Positions 1,706 to 25,685 of a DNA stretch of 64,000 nt are shown here, in pieces. Position 1 is the stretch's first letter. The number at the start of each line of letters is the position of its first letter. A program made the translations under genes and the position numbers. Origin of the DNA: Escherichia phage vB_EcoM_G37-3; the sequence record MK327941.1; one strand, 5' to 3'. The notes under the pieces were generated by a model. That model searched no databases. It had not been told where the DNA came from and worked only from the letters and a program-made list of their open reading frames with translations.

Positions 1706-2209
1706 TCAAATAATTTTCACTGGAATACTATTAACAATCTTGTATTGTACTTGATTGTCAGACCCCCGCCACGGCTTCTTCGTTGGCATATCTTTAATAT
1801 AACGACCATCGATGAACATGTCAACTGATTCTACAATTTTTCTTTGCTCATCATTCAATTGGTCAAGGGTATAACCGGACCATAGCCAAATATCTTTATT
1901 TGGCATCCATGATTTTACTTCATCGATGATCCGCTGTACACCCTTTAAATTGCGTTTATACAGTGGATCGCCACCTAAGAATGTTAGCCCCTGAATAAAA
2001 TCAGGTCTAAGCAGATCCAGAATCAATCCCATTGTATCATCGGTGAATGGTTCCCCGTTCTTAGGATTGAGTATGCTAGCATTAAAGCAACCATCACATG
2101 CGTGTGAACATCCGGTAACGTAAAGGGAGACTCTCACTCCCTCACCGTTAACCATATCACAATCTTTAATATCGGCATAGCGTAGTTTGCCGTATGTATC
2201 AGAACTCAT
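1706..2209 (-). CDS. nrdG: Anaerobic ribonucleotide reductase activating protein NrdG (radical SAM)
   Basis: Translation aligns closely with E. coli/T4 NrdG (VNGEGVRVSLYVTGCSHACDGCFN, GGDPL, IWLWSGY, WRGSDNQ); ATG at 2207-2209, track start 2215 is TTG. Confidence 0.9.
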   Translation of the reverse strand: MSSDTYGKLRYADIKDCDMVNGEGVRVSLYVTGCSHACDGCFNASILNPKNGEPFTDDTMGLILDLLRPDFIQGLTFLGGDPLYKRNLKGVQRIIDEVKSWMPNKDIWLWSGYTLDQLNDEQRKIVESVDMFIDGRYIKDMPTKKPWRGSDNQVQYKIVNSIPVKII

Positions 2210-2215
2210 ATTCAA

Positions 2216-3610: not shown

Positions 3611-5473
3611 TTACATGTGCTTAACGCGGTTTACCATCTCGGAGTGTTTCCCGTGGTTGAATGGACGCAGATCAACAGATCCAAGATATCCACTAACGCG
3701 ACGGATAACATTCATCTTTTCCAGATTGTCATTACCGCAATCAGGACAAACAAAACCAGACTCGGTCGCTCTCATTTCCTTAGTGGATCCGCATACATGA
3801 CATACATCAGAAGGAGTATTAACACCGAAGTAGTGCAATTTATCCATTGCATAGTCTACTACAGTTTCAAGACCTTTCAGGTTGTTTTTCATGTCTGGGA
3901 ACTCAACATAAGAGATCATGCCACCGGACGCCAGCCAGTGATAATCTTTCTCAAAGTCGATTTTCTCAAATGGAGTGACTTTCCGGTCTACGTCAAGATG
4001 GAATGAGTTGGTGTACCAGTCTTTATCGGTAGCACCCTTAACAATACCAAATTGCTCTCGGTCCAGTCGATTAAATCGATAGCAAAGGCTCTCGGCTGGC
4101 GTACCGTAAAGACTAAACCCAAGTCCGGTTTCATCCTTCCATTTTTCAGTATAATGACGCAAGATCTTAAGAATATGTTTACCGTATCGCTGCGCATCTT
4201 CCGAATCAAACGGATGAACATCAAACAGGACGCTCAATACCTCATGTAAACCAATATATCCAAGAGAGATACTAGCGCGACCATCTTTCAGAACTTCCAA
4301 AATTTCATCGTTTTGATGAATACGGAAAAATGCACCTTCTGTATACAGTACAGGAGCAACATTGGCTTTAGCCCCTTTTAAAGCGTCTACGCGACTCATG
4401 AGCGCATCAAAGCAAATAGGCATACGATTAGCTAGCTCTTGTTCGAATAGCTCAATTCTGCGCATTACAGACGCTTTACCAGCACGACGCGCGGCAATAA
4501 GGGCAATACGCGGAAGATTTAGAGTCACAACACCTAAGTTATTACGTCCGTCTAATACTTCTTCGCCTTTCTCATTATGCCACACACCCAGGAAGCTACG
4601 ACAACCCATCGGGCTAACCGGAACACTAGATCCGGTGATACTACGGTTATTCTTCGCAGAGATATAATCAGGGTAAAGACGCTTACTCGAACATTCCAAT
4701 GCAAGTTGCTTAATGTCGTAGTTCGGATCTTCCGGTTTAAGGTTTAATCCTTCTTCTAAGAACATCACCAGCTTAGGAAACACCGGAGTGATACCATCTT
4801 TACCTAAACCTTTAGTTCGAACGTTCAGGATCGCTTTCTGAATCAGTTTTTCTTCCCAGCTAGTACCCATACCAAAGGTTAAAGTCACAAAAGGCGTTTG
4901 ACCGTTGGTGGAGAACAAAGTGTTGATTTCATATTCCAACGCTTGATACCCGTCTAAAGTTTCTTTTTCTGTCTTCTCTTGTGCATAGAGAGTATCAGCT
5001 TTGATTCCGTAGGTTTCGGCATCAGCAAGGTGTTTATGATATGTTTTCTCAACATACGGTGCTAACACCTGATCGATGTTTGCGATTGTGGTCCCGCCAT
5101 ATTGATGACTTGCCACCTGTGCGATAATTTGAGCGGTTACAGCACAAGCAACGCCGATTGATTTCGGACTTTCGATTTGTGCGCTACCCAATTTAAAACC
5201 ATTCTCTAACATGTCTTTTAGATTAACAAGACAGCAGTTAGTAAACGGCATAGCGGGTGCATAATCCATATCATGATAATGAATATCACCGTCTACATGC
5301 GCTTTATAGATGTGCTCAGGTAACACGGTTTTAGCAATCTGTTTAGACACAGCACCAGCAATCAGATCTCGACGTGTCGGGAATGTTCGCGCGTCTTTGT
5401 TCGCGTTCTCTTTGCTTACTTCGTTTTCTTTACCCGTTGCGATCTCTGTAATGTCTTTGATTAGTTTTTCCAT
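3611..5473 (-). CDS. nrdD: Anaerobic ribonucleoside-triphosphate reductase NrdD (glycyl radical enzyme), uninterrupted
   Basis: 620-aa ORF collinear with T4 NrdD (FPTRRDLIAGAVSK, PFTNCCLVNLKDMLENGFKLG, C-terminal Cys cluster CHVCGS...CPDCG). Confidence 0.95.
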   Translation of the reverse strand: MEKLIKDITEIATGKENEVSKENANKDARTFPTRRDLIAGAVSKQIAKTVLPEHIYKAHVDGDIHYHDMDYAPAMPFTNCCLVNLKDMLENGFKLGSAQIESPKSIGVACAVTAQIIAQVASHQYGGTTIANIDQVLAPYVEKTYHKHLADAETYGIKADTLYAQEKTEKETLDGYQALEYEINTLFSTNGQTPFVTLTFGMGTSWEEKLIQKAILNVRTKGLGKDGITPVFPKLVMFLEEGLNLKPEDPNYDIKQLALECSSKRLYPDYISAKNNRSITGSSVPVSPMGCRSFLGVWHNEKGEEVLDGRNNLGVVTLNLPRIALIAARRAGKASVMRRIELFEQELANRMPICFDALMSRVDALKGAKANVAPVLYTEGAFFRIHQNDEILEVLKDGRASISLGYIGLHEVLSVLFDVHPFDSEDAQRYGKHILKILRHYTEKWKDETGLGFSLYGTPAESLCYRFNRLDREQFGIVKGATDKDWYTNSFHLDVDRKVTPFEKIDFEKDYHWLASGGMISYVEFPDMKNNLKGLETVVDYAMDKLHYFGVNTPSDVCHVCGSTKEMRATESGFVCPDCGNDNLEKMNVIRRVSGYLGSVDLRPFNHGKHSEMVNRVKHM

Positions 5474-20610: not shown

Positions 20611-21309
20611 CTAACCACGGGTATAGTGTTCCAGAACAACGGTCAGATGAATATATTCTAATAAATCCTTCCAAAAGTCAACATCTGGTTCTTCCGGCAT
20701 ACCGTTTTTCTTTGCCTCTTCACGCGCGAGTTTAACACGCTCGTAGAGATCTTTCAATTCTTCCCGCACATTATCAAAGGTTCTTTCTCCTAACTTACAC
20801 GCTAAAATAGAAGAACGTCGCGCGAGCGGGAATTGTAGATCACCAGTTTGATAGATTTCAAGTAGCTGATAACCAACACGCAGAGCATGAGAAAGATCTT
20901 TCCAGTTACTGAAATACTTTTCAGATTTTGCTACCTGCTTTTTGAGATAACCAGACAAACCCCACATCCCAACATGATAGAATTTATCGCGATGTGTTCT
21001 GATGTATTCCCATTCTCTGGAGGATTCAATCAACATGTTACTAGGCGCGTGCACCATGTCAATAGCGCCGATATCGCCTTTACATGCCAGATTGATAAAC
21101 CGTTTTAGACTGAACATATTAACGTCAATATCGTCTTTGGTGTTCTTGATACCTTGACCGCTAGTGCTTTGGTCATAGTGTTCTTTCATCGATCCTAAGA
21201 TAATTTCTTTCGCAGTCGGAACAAAGATACCACGATAATCTTTATCTGAATTTTCAGTATCAAGGCCGTATAAGTGAGATCCGAAGACCATTTTAACCAT
21301 AGTATGCAT
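20611..21309 (-). CDS. Putative nucleotidyltransferase-fold protein
   Basis: N-terminal FGSHLYGLDTENSDKDYRGIF fits the G-S-x9-D-x-D nucleotidyltransferase signature. Confidence 0.45.
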   Translation of the reverse strand: MHTMVKMVFGSHLYGLDTENSDKDYRGIFVPTAKEIILGSMKEHYDQSTSGQGIKNTKDDIDVNMFSLKRFINLACKGDIGAIDMVHAPSNMLIESSREWEYIRTHRDKFYHVGMWGLSGYLKKQVAKSEKYFSNWKDLSHALRVGYQLLEIYQTGDLQFPLARRSSILACKLGERTFDNVREELKDLYERVKLAREEAKKNGMPEEPDVDFWKDLLEYIHLTVVLEHYTRG

Positions 21310-21327: not shown

Positions 21328-21921
21328 TTAAACGTATTCAGCGACAACATTGTGTTTAAAATTACCACTTCTTTTTGGATTTGGATTTTTCAATCGACTA
21401 TGTATTAAATTTTTGTTATATCCGGTTGCTTTAGACGCTTCTCCAATACTTTGATAAACAACACCATCAACACGAATCGGACGAGACTTATTAAACAGTT
21501 TATTCAATCCGGTATCATATGCATGGTTTTGGTTTTCTTGTCTTGTTGCGATCTCAAGATTCCAAACACAATTACAAGATTTTACCCCACTTTTATGATT
21601 AATTTCAAGCCCTTCACAATCACCTATAAAGTGTTCAGCGACTAGTCTATGAATATAGCGATATTTCTTAGTTTCCCCGTCATGCAAGCATACATTATAA
21701 TAACCATCACCAGCGCGTTTAGGTCGGAGTAGTTTACCTTTAACACGTTTTATAGTAGGGAACTCACCAAATTGATTTCGCTGGATAAAAGGAATCTCTC
21801 GGTCAAGTGAACGGATTCGACCATAGTTAGATACTTGATAAAACCCCCCATAGCCCTTAATCTGCTTCCATATCTCGGGGATTTCAACACCATCAATAAC
21901 AACAAGTTTAAGTTCTTCCAT
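21328..21921 (-). CDS. HNH homing endonuclease (Mob-like)
   Basis: YQVSNYGRIRS (NUMOD4-like) and HRLVAEHFIGDCEGLEINHKSGVKSCNCVWNLE (HNH) motifs. Confidence 0.75.
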   Translation of the reverse strand: MEELKLVVIDGVEIPEIWKQIKGYGGFYQVSNYGRIRSLDREIPFIQRNQFGEFPTIKRVKGKLLRPKRAGDGYYNVCLHDGETKKYRYIHRLVAEHFIGDCEGLEINHKSGVKSCNCVWNLEIATRQENQNHAYDTGLNKLFNKSRPIRVDGVVYQSIGEASKATGYNKNLIHSRLKNPNPKRSGNFKHNVVAEYV

Positions 21922-21933
21922 ATATCACCTCAT

Positions 21934-21962
21934 AAAAATAAAGCCAACCCTTTCGGATTGGC
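21934..21962 (-). terminator. Rho-independent terminator downstream of GrcA-like gene
   Basis: Minus strand hairpin AGCCAATCC-GAAA-GGGTTGGCT followed by T-rich tract. Confidence 0.55.
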
Positions 21963-21969
21963 TTGTGTA

Positions 21970-22386
21970 TTACATAGATTCCGTAAAGGTACGGGTGATA
22001 ATATCAAGTTGCTGTTCGCGTGTCAAGGCATTGAAGCGGGTAGCATAACCACTGATTCGAATTGTAAGCTGCGGGTACTTTTCAGGATTTTCTAACGCAT
22101 CAAGAAGAGTCTCCCGACGCAGTACGTTCGCGTTTAGGTGCATTCCCCCTTCGATAATCGGTTTACCCGCATCGATTTCGCAAATTCGAAAATTGGTCTT
22201 ATGCAGCGCCAGCGAATCGACGTCTTCTGCGGTGATCACATGGTCTTCTGCGAAAGTTTTACTAACAATTACTTTAGCGCCGATCAGTGCTTTCGGTTCG
22301 GATACCAGAATCATAGGCGCGAAGTGTCCACCAATAATAGTACCTTTATGCTCACCTTTCATGATTTGAATTGCTTTAAATTCCAT
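21970..22386 (-). CDS. grcA: Autonomous glycyl radical cofactor GrcA/YfiD-like protein
   Basis: C-terminus [57 protein letters not shown] is near-identical in pattern to E. coli GrcA glycyl radical motif (RVSGY). Confidence 0.8.
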
Positions 22387-22521: not shown

Positions 22522-23013
22522 TTAGTTGATACCTAAGCCAATGAAAATAGGTTGGTCTTCTACACTACCCCTTCCAACACTAAATCGATTCAATTCTAAA
22601 AACTGCAATACGCTGTCAGTAAATCCGCGCATGGTAGTATCTAGGATAAAAATTGTTTTGTCAAGACTACGACCTCGCCATGTGATCGGATTCAGGAAAG
22701 TTCGGATCGACGTACAATCTACATTTGAAATATTTACATTTTCACCGCGACCGCGATCTCGGATCGTTTTGGCATGTTCCCGCGTCGTTGAAACGATAAA
22801 GACACTATAGCCTTTTCTCGTATAATGGTCATATAACTTGATTGTAGCGTCTGTATGCCCTGTCTGACGTCCTAAATTGATTGAGACAATGGAATCTAGG
22901 TCATCAGCAAAATTGCGTCGCTTACGACGTTCTATGATGCCATTTACGGCAGATACACACGCAGCATAAATCAAATCTTTACTTTCTAATTCTAAATCAA
23001 TGTCAATATTCAT
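22522..23013 (-). CDS. Hypothetical protein (163 aa)
   Basis: ORF with ATG and RBS; no recognised domain. Confidence 0.45.
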   Translation of the reverse strand: MNIDIDLELESKDLIYAACVSAVNGIIERRKRRNFADDLDSIVSINLGRQTGHTDATIKLYDHYTRKGYSVFIVSTTREHAKTIRDRGRGENVNISNVDCTSIRTFLNPITWRGRSLDKTIFILDTTMRGFTDSVLQFLELNRFSVGRGSVEDQPIFIGLGIN

Positions 23014-23021
23014 GGTAAAGT

Positions 23022-23056
23022 CTCCAGTGAACGGGGAGAGATCCTTAGATTGTCTC
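23022..23056. other. Stable GC-rich stem-loop downstream of endolysin gene
   Basis: Inverted repeat AACGGGGAGA...TCTCCCCGTT. Confidence 0.4.
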
Positions 23057-23075
23057 CCCGTTGATGGTTAATATT

Positions 23076-23465
23076 TTATTTTGGATCTGGGTATTTGCTG
23101 TGTGGTAGCTGAAAATGAACACCGTCTTTAAACGATACCCAATCCCCACCCCATTCAACAGGAACACCCAATTCTCGACCAGCTTGTTTAAATGCATCCG
23201 CGATCATGCGGTAGTATTTCATGTTCCATGTATCCTTATCTTTCGGATACGCTACAACATCAACCGCGAAACCGTGAAGATGACGAGATTTCATAGTCTT
23301 AGATTTACCTTCCGCAACATATTTCTTTTGCGTTTCTAGACTACGCACACCTTCCGTAATACCAAAATCGACCAGAGTCAGTTCTAACGCACGATGAACG
23401 ACTTTTACCAGATCAGGATGTACACCAACAAGCCGATCTTTGCTTCTTTGAGATAATTTAAACAT
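23076..23465 (-). CDS. M15-family L-alanyl-D-glutamate peptidase (T5 Lys-type endolysin)
   Basis: Aligns with phage T5 endolysin: KVVHRALELT, SRHLHGFAVDV, DAFKQAGRELG, GGDW, DGVHFQL (zinc-binding H/D residues). Confidence 0.75.
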   Translation of the reverse strand: MFKLSQRSKDRLVGVHPDLVKVVHRALELTLVDFGITEGVRSLETQKKYVAEGKSKTMKSRHLHGFAVDVVAYPKDKDTWNMKYYRMIADAFKQAGRELGVPVEWGGDWVSFKDGVHFQLPHSKYPDPK

Positions 23466-23493: not shown

Positions 23494-23685
23494 TTAGATT
23501 CCGGCGATCCTGCATATAGTTCTTGTATTAGCACCAATCAGGATCGCATTAACGACAACCATTCCCCAATCAACCCACTGATTATTATAAATGCTAAACC
23601 CGTTTGCAAGACCAAATACAAGCATTCCGGTACACATACTCAGAGCAATAATCAACATCACGGTAAAACCAAATGCAAATCTCAT
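23494..23685 (-). CDS. Small membrane protein (2 TM)
   Basis: Hydrophobic 63-aa ORF immediately upstream of endolysin. Confidence 0.4.
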   Translation of the reverse strand: MRFAFGFTVMLIIALSMCTGMLVFGLANGFSIYNNQWVDWGMVVVNAILIGANTRTICRIAGI

Positions 23686-23686
23686 A

Positions 23687-23953
23687 TTATTTTCCTTTTC
23701 TCTGTTTACGTTTATAAAAGTAATACATTACCTCATCGCGTCCGGTGATCCAACATGCTAGGGCGGTAAACAGGTTTACAATTCCCAACACACCTACTGA
23801 CGCGGCGCTGTCAACAGACATAGGAACAGTAAAGGCCATAGCTAACATAGCAACGCCACAAATGACATTAAGCACCATTATAATAAGACCGAAGAAAACC
23901 ATTGTCAATCCTCCGACACAAGAAAACCAACAATCACGCCAGTGATAAGACAT
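23687..23953 (-). CDS. Small membrane protein with basic C-terminal tail (holin-like features)
   Basis: Multiple hydrophobic helices then YKRKQRKGK tail. Confidence 0.4.
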   Translation of the reverse strand: MSYHWRDCWFSCVGGLTMVFFGLIIMVLNVICGVAMLAMAFTVPMSVDSAASVGVLGIVNLFTALACWITGRDEVMYYFYKRKQRKGK

Positions 23954-24096
23954 GATGCACCGCTAATCAGACAACCCGCGCCCATAGTTTCCCACCAGAT
24001 CAGAGAAGCGACAATAACACAGAATCCCCATACTACCGCAATCACAACATAGGCAAGGGTCGCCCAAAACATATATTTGTTCATAATAAATCCCAT
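23905..24096 (-). CDS. Small membrane protein
   Basis: Hydrophobic 63-aa ORF; start may be internal. Confidence 0.35.
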   Translation of the reverse strand: MGFIMNKYMFWATLAYVVIAVVWGFCVIVASLIWWETMGAGCLISGASCLITGVIVGFLVSED

Positions 24097-24269
24097 TCAC
24101 CAAACAAATAAGAAAAAAGCCATATCAACAGAAACGAGGCAATTGATCCGGCAAGCAAAATGATATTAGAGAATCCGCCGTCTATCCAGGCGACAAAACA
24201 GAATACGCCAGTATAGAAGCATAAACCCATTACAAAGCATACTATAAGCAACCATAGACAAAACTCCAT
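24081..24269 (-). CDS. Small membrane protein
   Basis: Hydrophobic 62-aa ORF with RBS GGAGGG. Confidence 0.35.
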   Translation of the reverse strand: MEFCLWLLIVCFVMGLCFYTGVFCFVAWIDGGFSNIILLAGSIASFLLIWLFSYLFGEWDLL

Positions 24270-24330
24270 AGAAAGCCCTCCAGCGAGATAAATTAGTGCG
24301 GGTAGTGGAATGTACTACCCGCTTTGTTAA

Positions 24331-24489
24331 TCAACGCAGAGCTTCTTCTAGCGCGATCCCAAACCATCCACAAACAACGCCCATACAGACAGCTACAAGA
24401 AGATTCATTCTCTCTTTAGGGATCATTGCAATCATAACAACAACCATACAGAAAGCCATTACCATTGAAGTTAACATTTGTTCAACCAT
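24331..24489 (-). CDS. Small membrane protein (about 52 aa) missed by ORF track
   Basis: ATG 24487-24489 with RBS AAGGTG; MVEQMLTSMVMAFCMVVVMIAMIPKE... Confidence 0.3.
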   Translation of the reverse strand: MVEQMLTSMVMAFCMVVVMIAMIPKERMNLLVAVCMGVVCGWFGIALEEALR

Positions 24490-24491
24490 TA

Positions 24492-24830
24492 TCACACCTT
24501 TAAAGTCATAGACGCATAAACATTAATGCCAGGCCAGTTAGGATCGCAATTATACTCAACATCCCACAAATAAAGCGGTTTAGATGTATCAGCCAAGTTT
24601 TTAAAATCTTCTACCCACATTTCAAGGCTATATGATGGATAAACTAGGCTATCATATCCGCCGTAACGTTGGCCTACTGGTCGGTCAGTAAAAACTACCT
24701 CAAGATCCGGTAATTCTTTTTCAAGGATAACCGCCAGCGCATAAATCAGACGGTCTTCCTTGTTACGCTGCCGAAGGACCGTTGTCAATTGGTTTTTCTG
24801 GTTCACTAGCAAGCACCTACACATTTTCAC
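24492..24830 (-). CDS. Hypothetical protein (112 aa)
   Basis: ORF in gene chain. Confidence 0.45.
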   Translation of the reverse strand: MKMCRCLLVNQKNQLTTVLRQRNKEDRLIYALAVILEKELPDLEVVFTDRPVGQRYGGYDSLVYPSYSLEMWVEDFKNLADTSKPLYLWDVEYNCDPNWPGINVYASMTLKV

Positions 24831-25083
24831 AGAATGAAATTTTCACAGACACAATTTTACCATAAGTGAAGAATGAATATACATTATCGAGATATTCAAC
24901 GTCACCTACAATCACATCAAACTGCGGATCAGCCACTGCCGCAACATATTCTACCAGTTCATCAAGAGAATGCAACTTAATTTCATCAATTCGGCTGTAT
25001 TTGGTTGCATCTTTGATTTTAAAACCACGTTCTTTCAGCTTATCAATCAGAATTTCACGCGGAGTTTCAAACAGTTTGCTCAT
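24817..25083 (-). CDS. Hypothetical protein (88 aa)
   Basis: ATG with RBS GAGGAT. Confidence 0.45.
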   Translation of the reverse strand: MSKLFETPREILIDKLKERGFKIKDATKYSRIDEIKLHSLDELVEYVAAVADPQFDVIVGDVEYLDNVYSFFTYGKIVSVKISFCENV

Positions 25084-25104
25084 AATATAATCCTCACATT
25101 AAAT

Positions 25105-25302
25105 CTAAAATTTGTTAACGACGAATTGCATAATTAGACTAATCACAAACATTGCAAACCAAGTATAAATGCAACAGATAAAAGCTACATACAATTCAAT
25201 CTGGTCAGAGAATACACCGGGTAAAAGCATTAGCAAAATAACAACAGTAAAGACGCTAGCGATACCCGCAACAAAACCAATATCATTTTTACTAATCGTC
25301 AT
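25105..25302 (-). CDS. Small membrane protein
   Basis: Hydrophobic ORF; ATG just inside TTG track start. Confidence 0.4.
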   Translation of the reverse strand: MTISKNDIGFVAGIASVFTVVILLMLLPGVFSDQIELYVAFICCIYTWFAMFVISLIMQFVVNKF

Positions 25303-25303
25303 C

Positions 25304-25447
25304 AAGTCACCGTTTTGTAAAGAAACACAATAAAATCCAAGACAAGAAAGACAGTGTAAATGATCATCGTCAAGACAGTAAACACTGTCAAATTTTCATC
25401 GTTAGTTAATTCATAGTCGCCCATCCATACAATCACAAGATATAGCA
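25304..25447 (-). CDS. Small membrane protein (about 48 aa), coordinates approximate
   Basis: MLYLVIVWMGDYELTNDENLTVFTVLTMIIYTVFLVLDFIVFLYKTVT; stop overlaps next start (TGATG). Confidence 0.25.
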
Positions 25448-25502
25448 TTGAAAGAATGGAAGCACCTACGAAGTTAAAAAAAACATATTCTTGAGCGTCA
25501 TA

Positions 25503-25685
25503 TTAACAACCATCGCGGCTTAAGTCAACAGCAATTGCATACAGCATAATGAATATGCTAGCAGATCCGAGAATCAATGCACCATCACATTTTGAAACTC
25601 GCTCATCAAAATGTAACATTATCCATCCGAGGATGTTAAAGGCGCAGACCGCGCCTATGTTCGCTAACCAATTAATCTTTTTCAT
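25503..25685 (-). CDS. Small membrane protein
   Basis: Hydrophobic 60-aa ORF. Confidence 0.4.
   Translation of the reverse strand: MKKINWLANIGAVCAFNILGWIMLHFDERVSKCDGALILGSASIFIMLYAIAVDLSRDGC

Follow-up and report, generated by a model that had tools for sequence, protein, structure and literature searches.

A phage grcA gene with a mosaic glycyl-radical domain beside a putative HNH homing endonuclease gene

A small gene for a GrcA-like glycyl-radical protein and a gene for an HNH endonuclease lie side by side in a 64,000-nucleotide (nt) stretch of Escherichia phage vB_EcoM_G37-3 (sequence record MK327941.1; this whole stretch is called the window, and positions are counted from its first letter). 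The pair raises two questions: which enzyme does the GrcA-like protein serve, and do the two genes travel together? An earlier note on this DNA had proposed that the protein repairs an oxygen-damaged radical domain, either that of the phage’s own NrdD or that of the host pyruvate formate-lyase (PFL, protein PflB), and that the locus may be a mobile unit. The window comes from a Krischvirus, an RB49-like T-even coliphage, and we compared the 3-kb region around grcA with phage records, 58 of which match it at 90–99% identity (the top match, Escherichia phage FL04, at 98%). We consider a two-part explanation to be probable, in which the GrcA-like protein is a spare part for PFL, and the HNH protein is a homing endonuclease that co-converts the grcA tail and an early-type promoter within it. 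Both open reading frames (ORFs) described in the earlier note are present on the minus strand and are no chance matches, with the HNH gene 48 nt downstream of grcA:

21970–22386, minus strand: grcA, homologue of T4 vs.6/Y06I, 138 amino acids (aa), from matches to Pfam, PDB, T4 Vs.6, and phrog_1209
22048–22050, minus strand: GGT codon of the radical glycine, Gly113 (R110-I-S-G-Y114), by direct reading, aligned with PflB G734 and GrcA G102
21328–21921, minus strand: free-standing I-HmuI-like HNH gene, 197 aa, from matches to Pfam and PDB 1U3E

By its alignments, the gene is the Krischvirus homologue of T4 vs.6/Y06I, and both the gene and its probable function are already known. The Pfam domain Gly_radical (E = 2.7e-15), the sole recognizable domain, spans only residues 78–119 of the 138-aa protein. 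The ORF also aligns with the solution structure of E. coli GrcA (PDB 6owr; E = 5e-28, to GrcA residues 29–127), matches the phage family phrog_1209 end to end (1e-46), and is 53% identical to T4 Vs.6 (E = 2e-42, residues 4–138 on 2–120). Residues 77–138 align with PflB 698–759 at 48 of 62 identical positions (~77%; E = 1.5e-26). The C-terminus is GrcA/YfiD-like, as the earlier note had read it: Gly113 of the RISGY motif aligns with the radical glycines of GrcA and PflB and has not been lost, and the Arg, Ser, and Tyr of the loop are kept with it. Like T4 Vs.6 and GrcA, the protein is small and stand-alone, its C-terminal ~60 residues resemble the radical domain of PflB, and it carries R-x-S-G-Y; like T4 vs.6, the gene lies in an early, non-essential region of a T-even phage. 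Unlike T4 Vs.6, it is 18 residues longer, with the insertion in the N-terminal half, and its neighbors are nrdC.11 and the endolysin gene rather than vs.5 and vs.7.

For the T4 homologue Y06I/Vs.6, rescue of PFL is established, and among the functions considered here, the same role toward host PflB has the strongest support. PMC8683613 gives two spare-part proteins, E. coli YfiD and T4 Y06I, as experimentally validated, and relates for T4 Y06I (Wagner et al. 2001) that it received its radical from the PFL activase and restored O2-cleaved PFL; support in vivo for the function of GrcA is given in PMC12338860. If it works as its homologues E. coli GrcA and T4 Y06I do, host PflA would install the radical on Gly113, and the activated protein would then dock onto a PflB with an O2-severed radical domain and pass the radical to PflB Cys419. 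This transfer would bring back the production of acetyl-CoA and formate in microaerobic infected cells. Homologues of grcA occur in ~1,580 phage records by tblastn, among T-even genera, T5-like phages, and jumbo phages, and many are labelled “autonomous glycyl radical cofactor” or “pyruvate formate-lyase”, including those of close relatives of the window. A phage GrcA spare part is thus not new in itself: Y06I was characterized in 2001, and many phages carry the gene, often under a fitting annotation.

The HNH gene has the features of a homing endonuclease gene (HEG). Its protein matches Pfam NUMOD4 (4e-17, aa 16–80) and HNH_3 (2.5e-10, with the HNH at aa 88–131), ends in a helix-turn-helix (HTH)-like segment (aa 145–178; I-TevI_DNA-bd at 20.3 bits, under the cut-off of 27), and aligns with I-HmuI (PDB 1U3E) at 7e-12. 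The NUMOD4-HNH-HTH order is that of I-HmuI of Bacillus phage SPO1, and unlike the intron-encoded I-HmuI, the gene in the window is not in an intron. The ORF is unbroken and evolves under purifying selection (ratio of non-synonymous to synonymous divergence, dN/dS, 0.06–0.17), and these features point to a free-standing homing endonuclease of a typical kind, which is predicted to be active. No paralogue of it was found elsewhere in the window. We rejected a kinship with T4 MobD, also a neighbor of nrdC.11, as the two have no significant similarity.

Copies of the HNH gene at ≥90% identity occur in only 8 of the 58 Krischvirus records (FL04, AV108, MIZ4, MIZ5, LF73P4, FL20, pEJ01, and JK32) and in one ENA metagenome contig, and in all of these the gene lies between grcA and nrdC.11. 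Most other Krischviruses have an 86-nt spacer at this junction in its place. The insertion is the size of the ORF: similarity to the empty site fades after TTTTATGA(G)GT, ending just before the HNH start codon, and returns at the TAA stop. The downstream flank, nrdC.11, is 98–99% identical at the nucleotide level to that of HEG-free relatives as far as the junction. Two features mark the edges of the insertion:

21925–21931, minus strand: Shine-Dalgarno sequence GAGGTGA of the HNH gene, read directly; the left insertion junction is approximately here
20611–21309, minus strand: nrdC.11-like nucleotidyltransferase gene, the conserved flank downstream of the insertion site, from its Pfam RlaP match

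The HNH gene is mobile, as its patchy occurrence among relatives shows. The proposal of a mobile unit holds to this extent, and grcA itself is fixed across the genus. Only the 3′ 55–80 codons of grcA travel with the HNH gene, not the whole of grcA, and this is seen most clearly against kaaroe, a HEG-free relative that is 96–100% identical to the window overall across 6 kb. The gene falls into three segments:

22210–22386, minus strand: grcA codons 1–59, the resident, genus-conserved 5′ segment, with 0 of 177 nt differing from kaaroe
22135–22209, minus strand: grcA codons 60–84, a hypervariable linker, where the window/FL04 allele has ~50% nt identity to others
21973–22134, minus strand: grcA codons 85–138, the radical-domain tail, of an HNH-linked allele class by nt identity

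Across codons 60–138, 80 of 240 nt (33%) differ between the window and kaaroe, with 25 synonymous and 25 non-synonymous codon changes, against 62 of 4,189 nt in the remaining aligned sequence (Fisher p = 4e-68). The 5′ segment is 95–100% identical among nine Krischvirus alleles, and the MIZ4-type form of the linker occurs in HNH-carrying records only. In the tail, HNH carriers are 88–96% identical among themselves at the nucleotide level and 64–74% identical to all others. A window-type tail is found in all eight HNH records (83–99% nt identity) and in none of the 50 others (67–73%), where the 50 lack the window-type HNH gene and include five with a different one (two JSE records, 011D4, Whisky, and phiS). 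By their flanks, the carriers form no clade, with kaaroe as near to the window as MIZ4 or FL04 is, and the HNH genes differ between carriers by a dS of 0.14–0.41, exceeding the divergence of the flanks (2–5%). Against the resident allele, codons 85–138 have a dS of 1.19 and a dN of 0.20, which indicates that the HNH-linked tail is an old, constrained allele and not the product of decay in situ.

The same junction holds a second type of endonuclease gene in other phages. JSE and phiS carry another NUMOD4-HNH gene (175–176 aa, its product 28% identical to that of the window) at the grcA/nrdC.11 junction, at 983–1513 of sequence L020 for JSE and 1260–1787 of sequence L021 for phiS, and by tblastn 011D4 and Whisky carry this second type as well. 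The 24-nt leader GGCTTTATTTTTATGAGGTGATAT is identical before the window HNH gene and the JSE HNH gene, though the ORFs differ. In each occupied state the tail of grcA diverges from the resident one, and the position at which it begins to do so varies:

Window/FL04 haplotype: tail 64–74% nt identity to resident (whole H1 class); breakpoint near codon 60
MIZ4-type haplotype: tail 64–74% nt identity to resident (whole H1 class); breakpoint near codon 69
phiS haplotype: tail (codons 85–138) 62% nt identity to resident; breakpoint near codon 69
JSE haplotype: tail (codons 85–138) 72% nt identity to resident; breakpoint near codon 85
kaaroe, G2494, and RB49 (HEG-free): one common tail, 95–98% among themselves; no breakpoint

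In each HEG-linked allele, nearly all codons of R-V-S-G-Y-A-V-R are recoded, including the serine codon, from TCT to AGT or AGC. The varying breakpoints and the recoded tails in each HEG state are the signature expected from intronless homing with variable co-conversion and from competition between endonucleases. The grcA–nrdC.11 junction is a multi-HEG hot spot, and with every endonuclease there goes a rewritten glycyl-radical domain, one of which has a predicted promoter embedded in it; this is the modestly new part of our results.

A second HEG hot spot lies close by, between the endolysin gene and the ORF at 22522–23013 (window 23014–23122). FL04 (sequence L003, 4063–4638) and JK32 (sequence L001, 4070–4645) carry a 191-aa HNH_3+AP2 endonuclease there, and for pEJ01 the presence of a HEG at this site was judged by length. 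The design comprises strongly divergent last ~25 codons of the endolysin gene, a stem-loop (AAGCCAGCTTAATCGCTGGCTT), and then the HEG. This site is empty in the window, kaaroe, and MIZ4.

Given this pattern, the HNH gene most likely spread by intronless homing, for which PMC2988022 gives the framework of free-standing HEGs and co-conversion. During co-infection, the HNH protein would nick or cleave HEG-less genomes, and repair off the HEG-carrying genome would copy the HEG together with a co-conversion tract of variable length. Through this tract, a deeply diverged allele would take the place of the last 55–80 grcA codons, and the HNH gene would itself have arrived as a bare ORF within a promoter/stem-loop cassette between grcA and nrdC.11. 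Going by the sequence comparisons, the mobile unit would be the HEG plus the grcA tail and not grcA as a whole, as is typical of intronless homing with co-conversion.

The T4 genes mobA–E spread by intronless homing with co-conversion and marker exclusion. Our HNH gene resembles these free-standing T-even HNH genes in its intergenic position between conserved genes, its patchy presence, and its flanking conversion tract. It differs from them, and from I-HmuI, in that the converted tract holds a predicted promoter and changes the coding sequence for the active-site loop of an auxiliary metabolic protein. The regulatory features of the junction are as follows:

21941–21964, minus strand: intrinsic-terminator-type stem-loop, 10 bp and GC-rich, followed by a T-run (fold z = −3.7)
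21998–22026, minus strand: predicted sigma-70/early-type promoter, TTGACA-17-TATTAT with TG (11/12), inside the HNH-linked grcA tail and directed toward the HNH gene

The stem-loop lies in the 48-nt spacer between grcA and the HNH gene, is invariant in four HNH carriers and also present in empty sites, and is annotated as a terminator in phage G2494. At the empty sites, and likewise in JSE and phiS, the 3′ arm of the hairpin overlaps a −35 element, TTGGCT, followed after 17 nt by TATGAT; at the empty sites this promoter-like sequence scores 9/12 with TG. The TATGAT −10 element has been lost in the window haplotype. There, the 11/12 promoter inside the grcA tail is present in all five HNH-linked alleles compared, and other alleles reach 8–9/12 at best; a rare Val-to-Ile change (2% of homologues) is the very substitution that creates TATTAT. 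This embedded promoter is probably the one from which the HEG, and nrdC.11 displaced behind it, are transcribed.

Promoters of at least 11/12 number 24 in the window, compared to 2.3 expected by shuffling (10-fold), and this class is the genuine early type of the phage. Among these near-consensus promoters, 23 of the 24 are on the minus strand, nearly all in front of small early ORFs at positions below 29.1 kb, and three lie beyond 50 kb; the pattern fits the hyperplastic regions of RB49/phi1, rich in promoter-early stem-loops (PeSLs). In a single-sequence RNA fold, the 3′-terminal codons of grcA base-pair with the HNH start codon; for a pairing that hides the HNH start or its Shine-Dalgarno sequence, the consensus RNA fold gave a different register and no covariation.

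The anatomy of the junction also brings in an alternative to homing. PeSLs have been shown experimentally to mediate the insertion and deletion of ORFs in RB49/phi1 (PMC2839356), and ordinary recombination at such cassettes could account for both the presence or absence of the HNH gene and the mosaic tail, with the endonuclease not being the initiator. The junction is PeSL-like, with a stem-loop over the −35 element, TATGAT, a Shine-Dalgarno sequence, and ATG, and resembles the PeSLs of RB49/phi1 in joining a stem-loop and a predicted sigma-70-like early promoter between small early genes at a site polymorphic for insertions and deletions. It differs from a PeSL in that the strong predicted promoter of the HNH haplotype lies inside the upstream coding sequence and not in an AT-rich spacer, and in that the polymorphism reaches into grcA. 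The shared leader before two different HEG ORFs would fit a cassette swap as well. However, such shuffling predicts intergenic crossovers, not a replaced tract of 165–240 nt within the upstream gene. The replaced tails are found only in HEG haplotypes (13 of 13 records), with the three HEG-free alleles inspected all being resident, and each of the two inserted ORFs encodes an endonuclease and has been subject to purifying selection. In addition, the one-sided tract is repeated at the second HEG site. We therefore regard PeSL shuffling without a role for the endonuclease as unlikely, and retain homing as the preferred explanation.

What has the replacement done to the protein? Only one of the last 60 residues differs between T4 Vs.6 and E. 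coli GrcA, and the GrcA of the window has eight changes within its last 29 residues. The loop RVSGYAV, a heptamer that has been used as a peptide substrate of the PFL activating enzyme (PFL-AE) (PMC10665898), reads RISGYAT in the window, with Ile found in 1% and Thr in 0% of the 115 closest homologues. Further rare changes in the tail are Gln to Met, Val to Ala, and Arg to Leu. Because rare residues sit at near-invariant tail positions, activation or docking could be altered, and the HNH-linked allele might be a compromised or altered hitch-hiker, in which a selfish element, by bringing in or forcing substitutions in the radical loop, has weakened activation by PflA or docking onto PflB. Two of the rare residues fall inside the heptamer itself, and the score of the protein under its NCBIfam cut-off (below) would agree with such a view. 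On the other hand, the changes from Val to Ile, Thr, or Ala are conservative, and the loop retains its Gly, Ser, Tyr, and Arg. The tail has a dN/dS of ~0.17, indicating purifying selection, and the allele has been kept with few changes in five diverged genomes. Given these conservative substitutions and the purifying selection on the tail, we expect that GrcA function is kept, and judge a compromised allele to be improbable. For glycyl-radical biochemistry, RISGYAT and RVSGYAV are natural variants with which the tolerance of PflA and PflB could be probed.

Several observations weigh against the two-part explanation of a PFL spare part with a homing endonuclease at its 3′ end. With respect to the protein, the NCBIfam equivalog TIGR04365 (spare_glycyl) gives 117.2 bits, below its cut-off of 170, where the model was made for bacterial GrcA and leaves the N-terminal 36 residues unmatched; and seven near-invariant positions of the tail hold residues found in 0–3% of the 115 homologues. 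With respect to homing, the divergent tract flanks the HEG on a single side, the flank comparisons are based on 5–9 genomes, and the embedded promoter has no AT-rich upstream region and is separated from the HEG by the terminator hairpin. Finally, a donor of the linked tail was not found in IMG/VR, metagenome contigs, or a set of 5.8 billion proteins. IMG/VR, searched with the protein sequence as well as a 32-nt DNA pattern, and metagenome contigs, searched with the protein sequence, returned only HNH relatives of 37–41% identity and no match to the tail. The search of the 5.8-billion-protein set returned a related lineage of 134-aa GrcA proteins (P0001, P0003, and P0005) with a similar amino-acid tail, which we rejected as the donor at only ~70% nt identity. 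A recent capture of grcA from host pflB, grcA, or tdcE was rejected as well, on nucleotide identity to E. coli pflB, which is 69% for the window allele and 76% for the resident allele. The 134-aa GrcA comes from an unsampled relative of Krischvirus in Logan assemblies SRR8048111, SRR8048121, and SRR8048118 (contigs L010, L013, and L014), which keeps the order endolysin–ORF–grcA; two of the three contigs end directly after grcA.

Why would endonucleases of two separate lineages settle beside the same coding segment? One possible reading, which we hold only tentatively, is that at least two HNH endonucleases compete for, and recognize, the DNA of the very highly conserved grcA radical loop, and that the HEG-linked tails, with their recoded loop codons, switched serine codon, and changes at otherwise invariant residues, are immunity alleles. 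In the lineage of the window, on this equally tentative reading, the tail would also have gained a promoter that expresses the endonuclease. If this were true, a selfish element would have rewritten the active-site region of an auxiliary metabolic gene, and would be regulated in part through it. The junction in any case offers a natural experiment, where one site exists in three states (empty, HNH type 1, and HNH type 2), with each occupied state having its own diverged radical domain. This makes for a clean system in which to study homing targets, co-conversion tracts, and the competition of HEGs, and both empty (MIZ2, MIZ3, and MIZ6) and occupied (MIZ4 and MIZ5) phages come from one collection.

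Returning to the enzyme that is served, the other client proposed in the earlier note was the phage’s own class III ribonucleotide reductase (RNR). Both this enzyme and its activase are indeed encoded in the window, ~16–20 kb from grcA:

3611–5473, minus strand: NrdD, class III RNR (Pfam NRDD, 8e-175)
1706–2215, minus strand: NrdG activase (TIGR02491, 166 bits; cut-off 126)

On this reading, the phage GrcA would be activated by NrdG and would replace the O2-cleaved radical loop of NrdD. The presence of NrdD and NrdG in the same window is consistent with this, as is the match of both GrcA and NrdD to Pfam Gly_radical, with NrdD also reading R-V-S-G-Y, and spare parts for other glycyl radical enzymes have been the subject of speculation (PMC8683613). 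However, BLASTP between the two proteins gives E values of 0.1–2, and the alignment shares only R[IV]SGY; similarity stops outside this pentapeptide, whereas the tail is ~77% identical to PflB. The radical loop of NrdD is preceded by a Cys4 Zn-ribbon that GrcA does not have, GrcA containing a single Cys. T4 Y06I, for its part, worked with PFL and PFL-AE, and the genes in the window are 16 kb apart with no shared operon. We rejected the NrdD spare-part hypothesis on these sequence grounds (R[IV]SGY only, no Zn-ribbon in GrcA), and consider a repair of NrdD to be very improbable. The loop of the phage NrdD reads RRVSGYLG (residues ~591–598; window 3611–3700), and the protein is otherwise unrelated to GrcA in sequence.

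PFL thus remains the preferred client, and the activase is presumably that of the host: a scan of all window ORFs for the CxxxCxxC motif found no second activase of the radical S-adenosylmethionine (radical-SAM) type besides NrdG, and no PflA-like activase, and with NrdG as the sole CxxxCxxC radical-SAM ORF in the window, GrcA would presumably rely on host PflA. The link between GrcA and NrdD/NrdG may instead be metabolic. In most of the systems characterized, class III RNRs draw their reducing equivalents from formate, and the literature discusses a formate site in T4 NrdD (PMC4493059). Because PFL yields formate, active PFL would feed phage deoxynucleotide (dNTP) synthesis, and the upkeep of PFL by GrcA would support NrdD in this way rather than by repair. 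Such a link, from GrcA to PFL to formate to NrdD, is likely and gives a rationale for the co-occurrence of these genes in phages of facultative anaerobes.

The genes around the locus are all on the minus strand, in the order endolysin, phrog_1488 ORF, 41-aa ORF, grcA, HNH gene, and nrdC.11-like nucleotidyltransferase. The two that have not been placed above are:

23076–23465, minus strand: endolysin
22522–23013, minus strand: phrog_1488 ORF

The nrdC.11 product is 32% identical to T4 NrdC.11 (E = 1e-50). It has 232 aa and its T4 counterpart 336, and it lacks a stretch of ~100 residues from the middle of the T4 protein. Upstream of the endolysin gene, at 23494–25685 on the minus strand, lie about eight small ORFs (48–88 aa) with strongly hydrophobic, membrane-like products.

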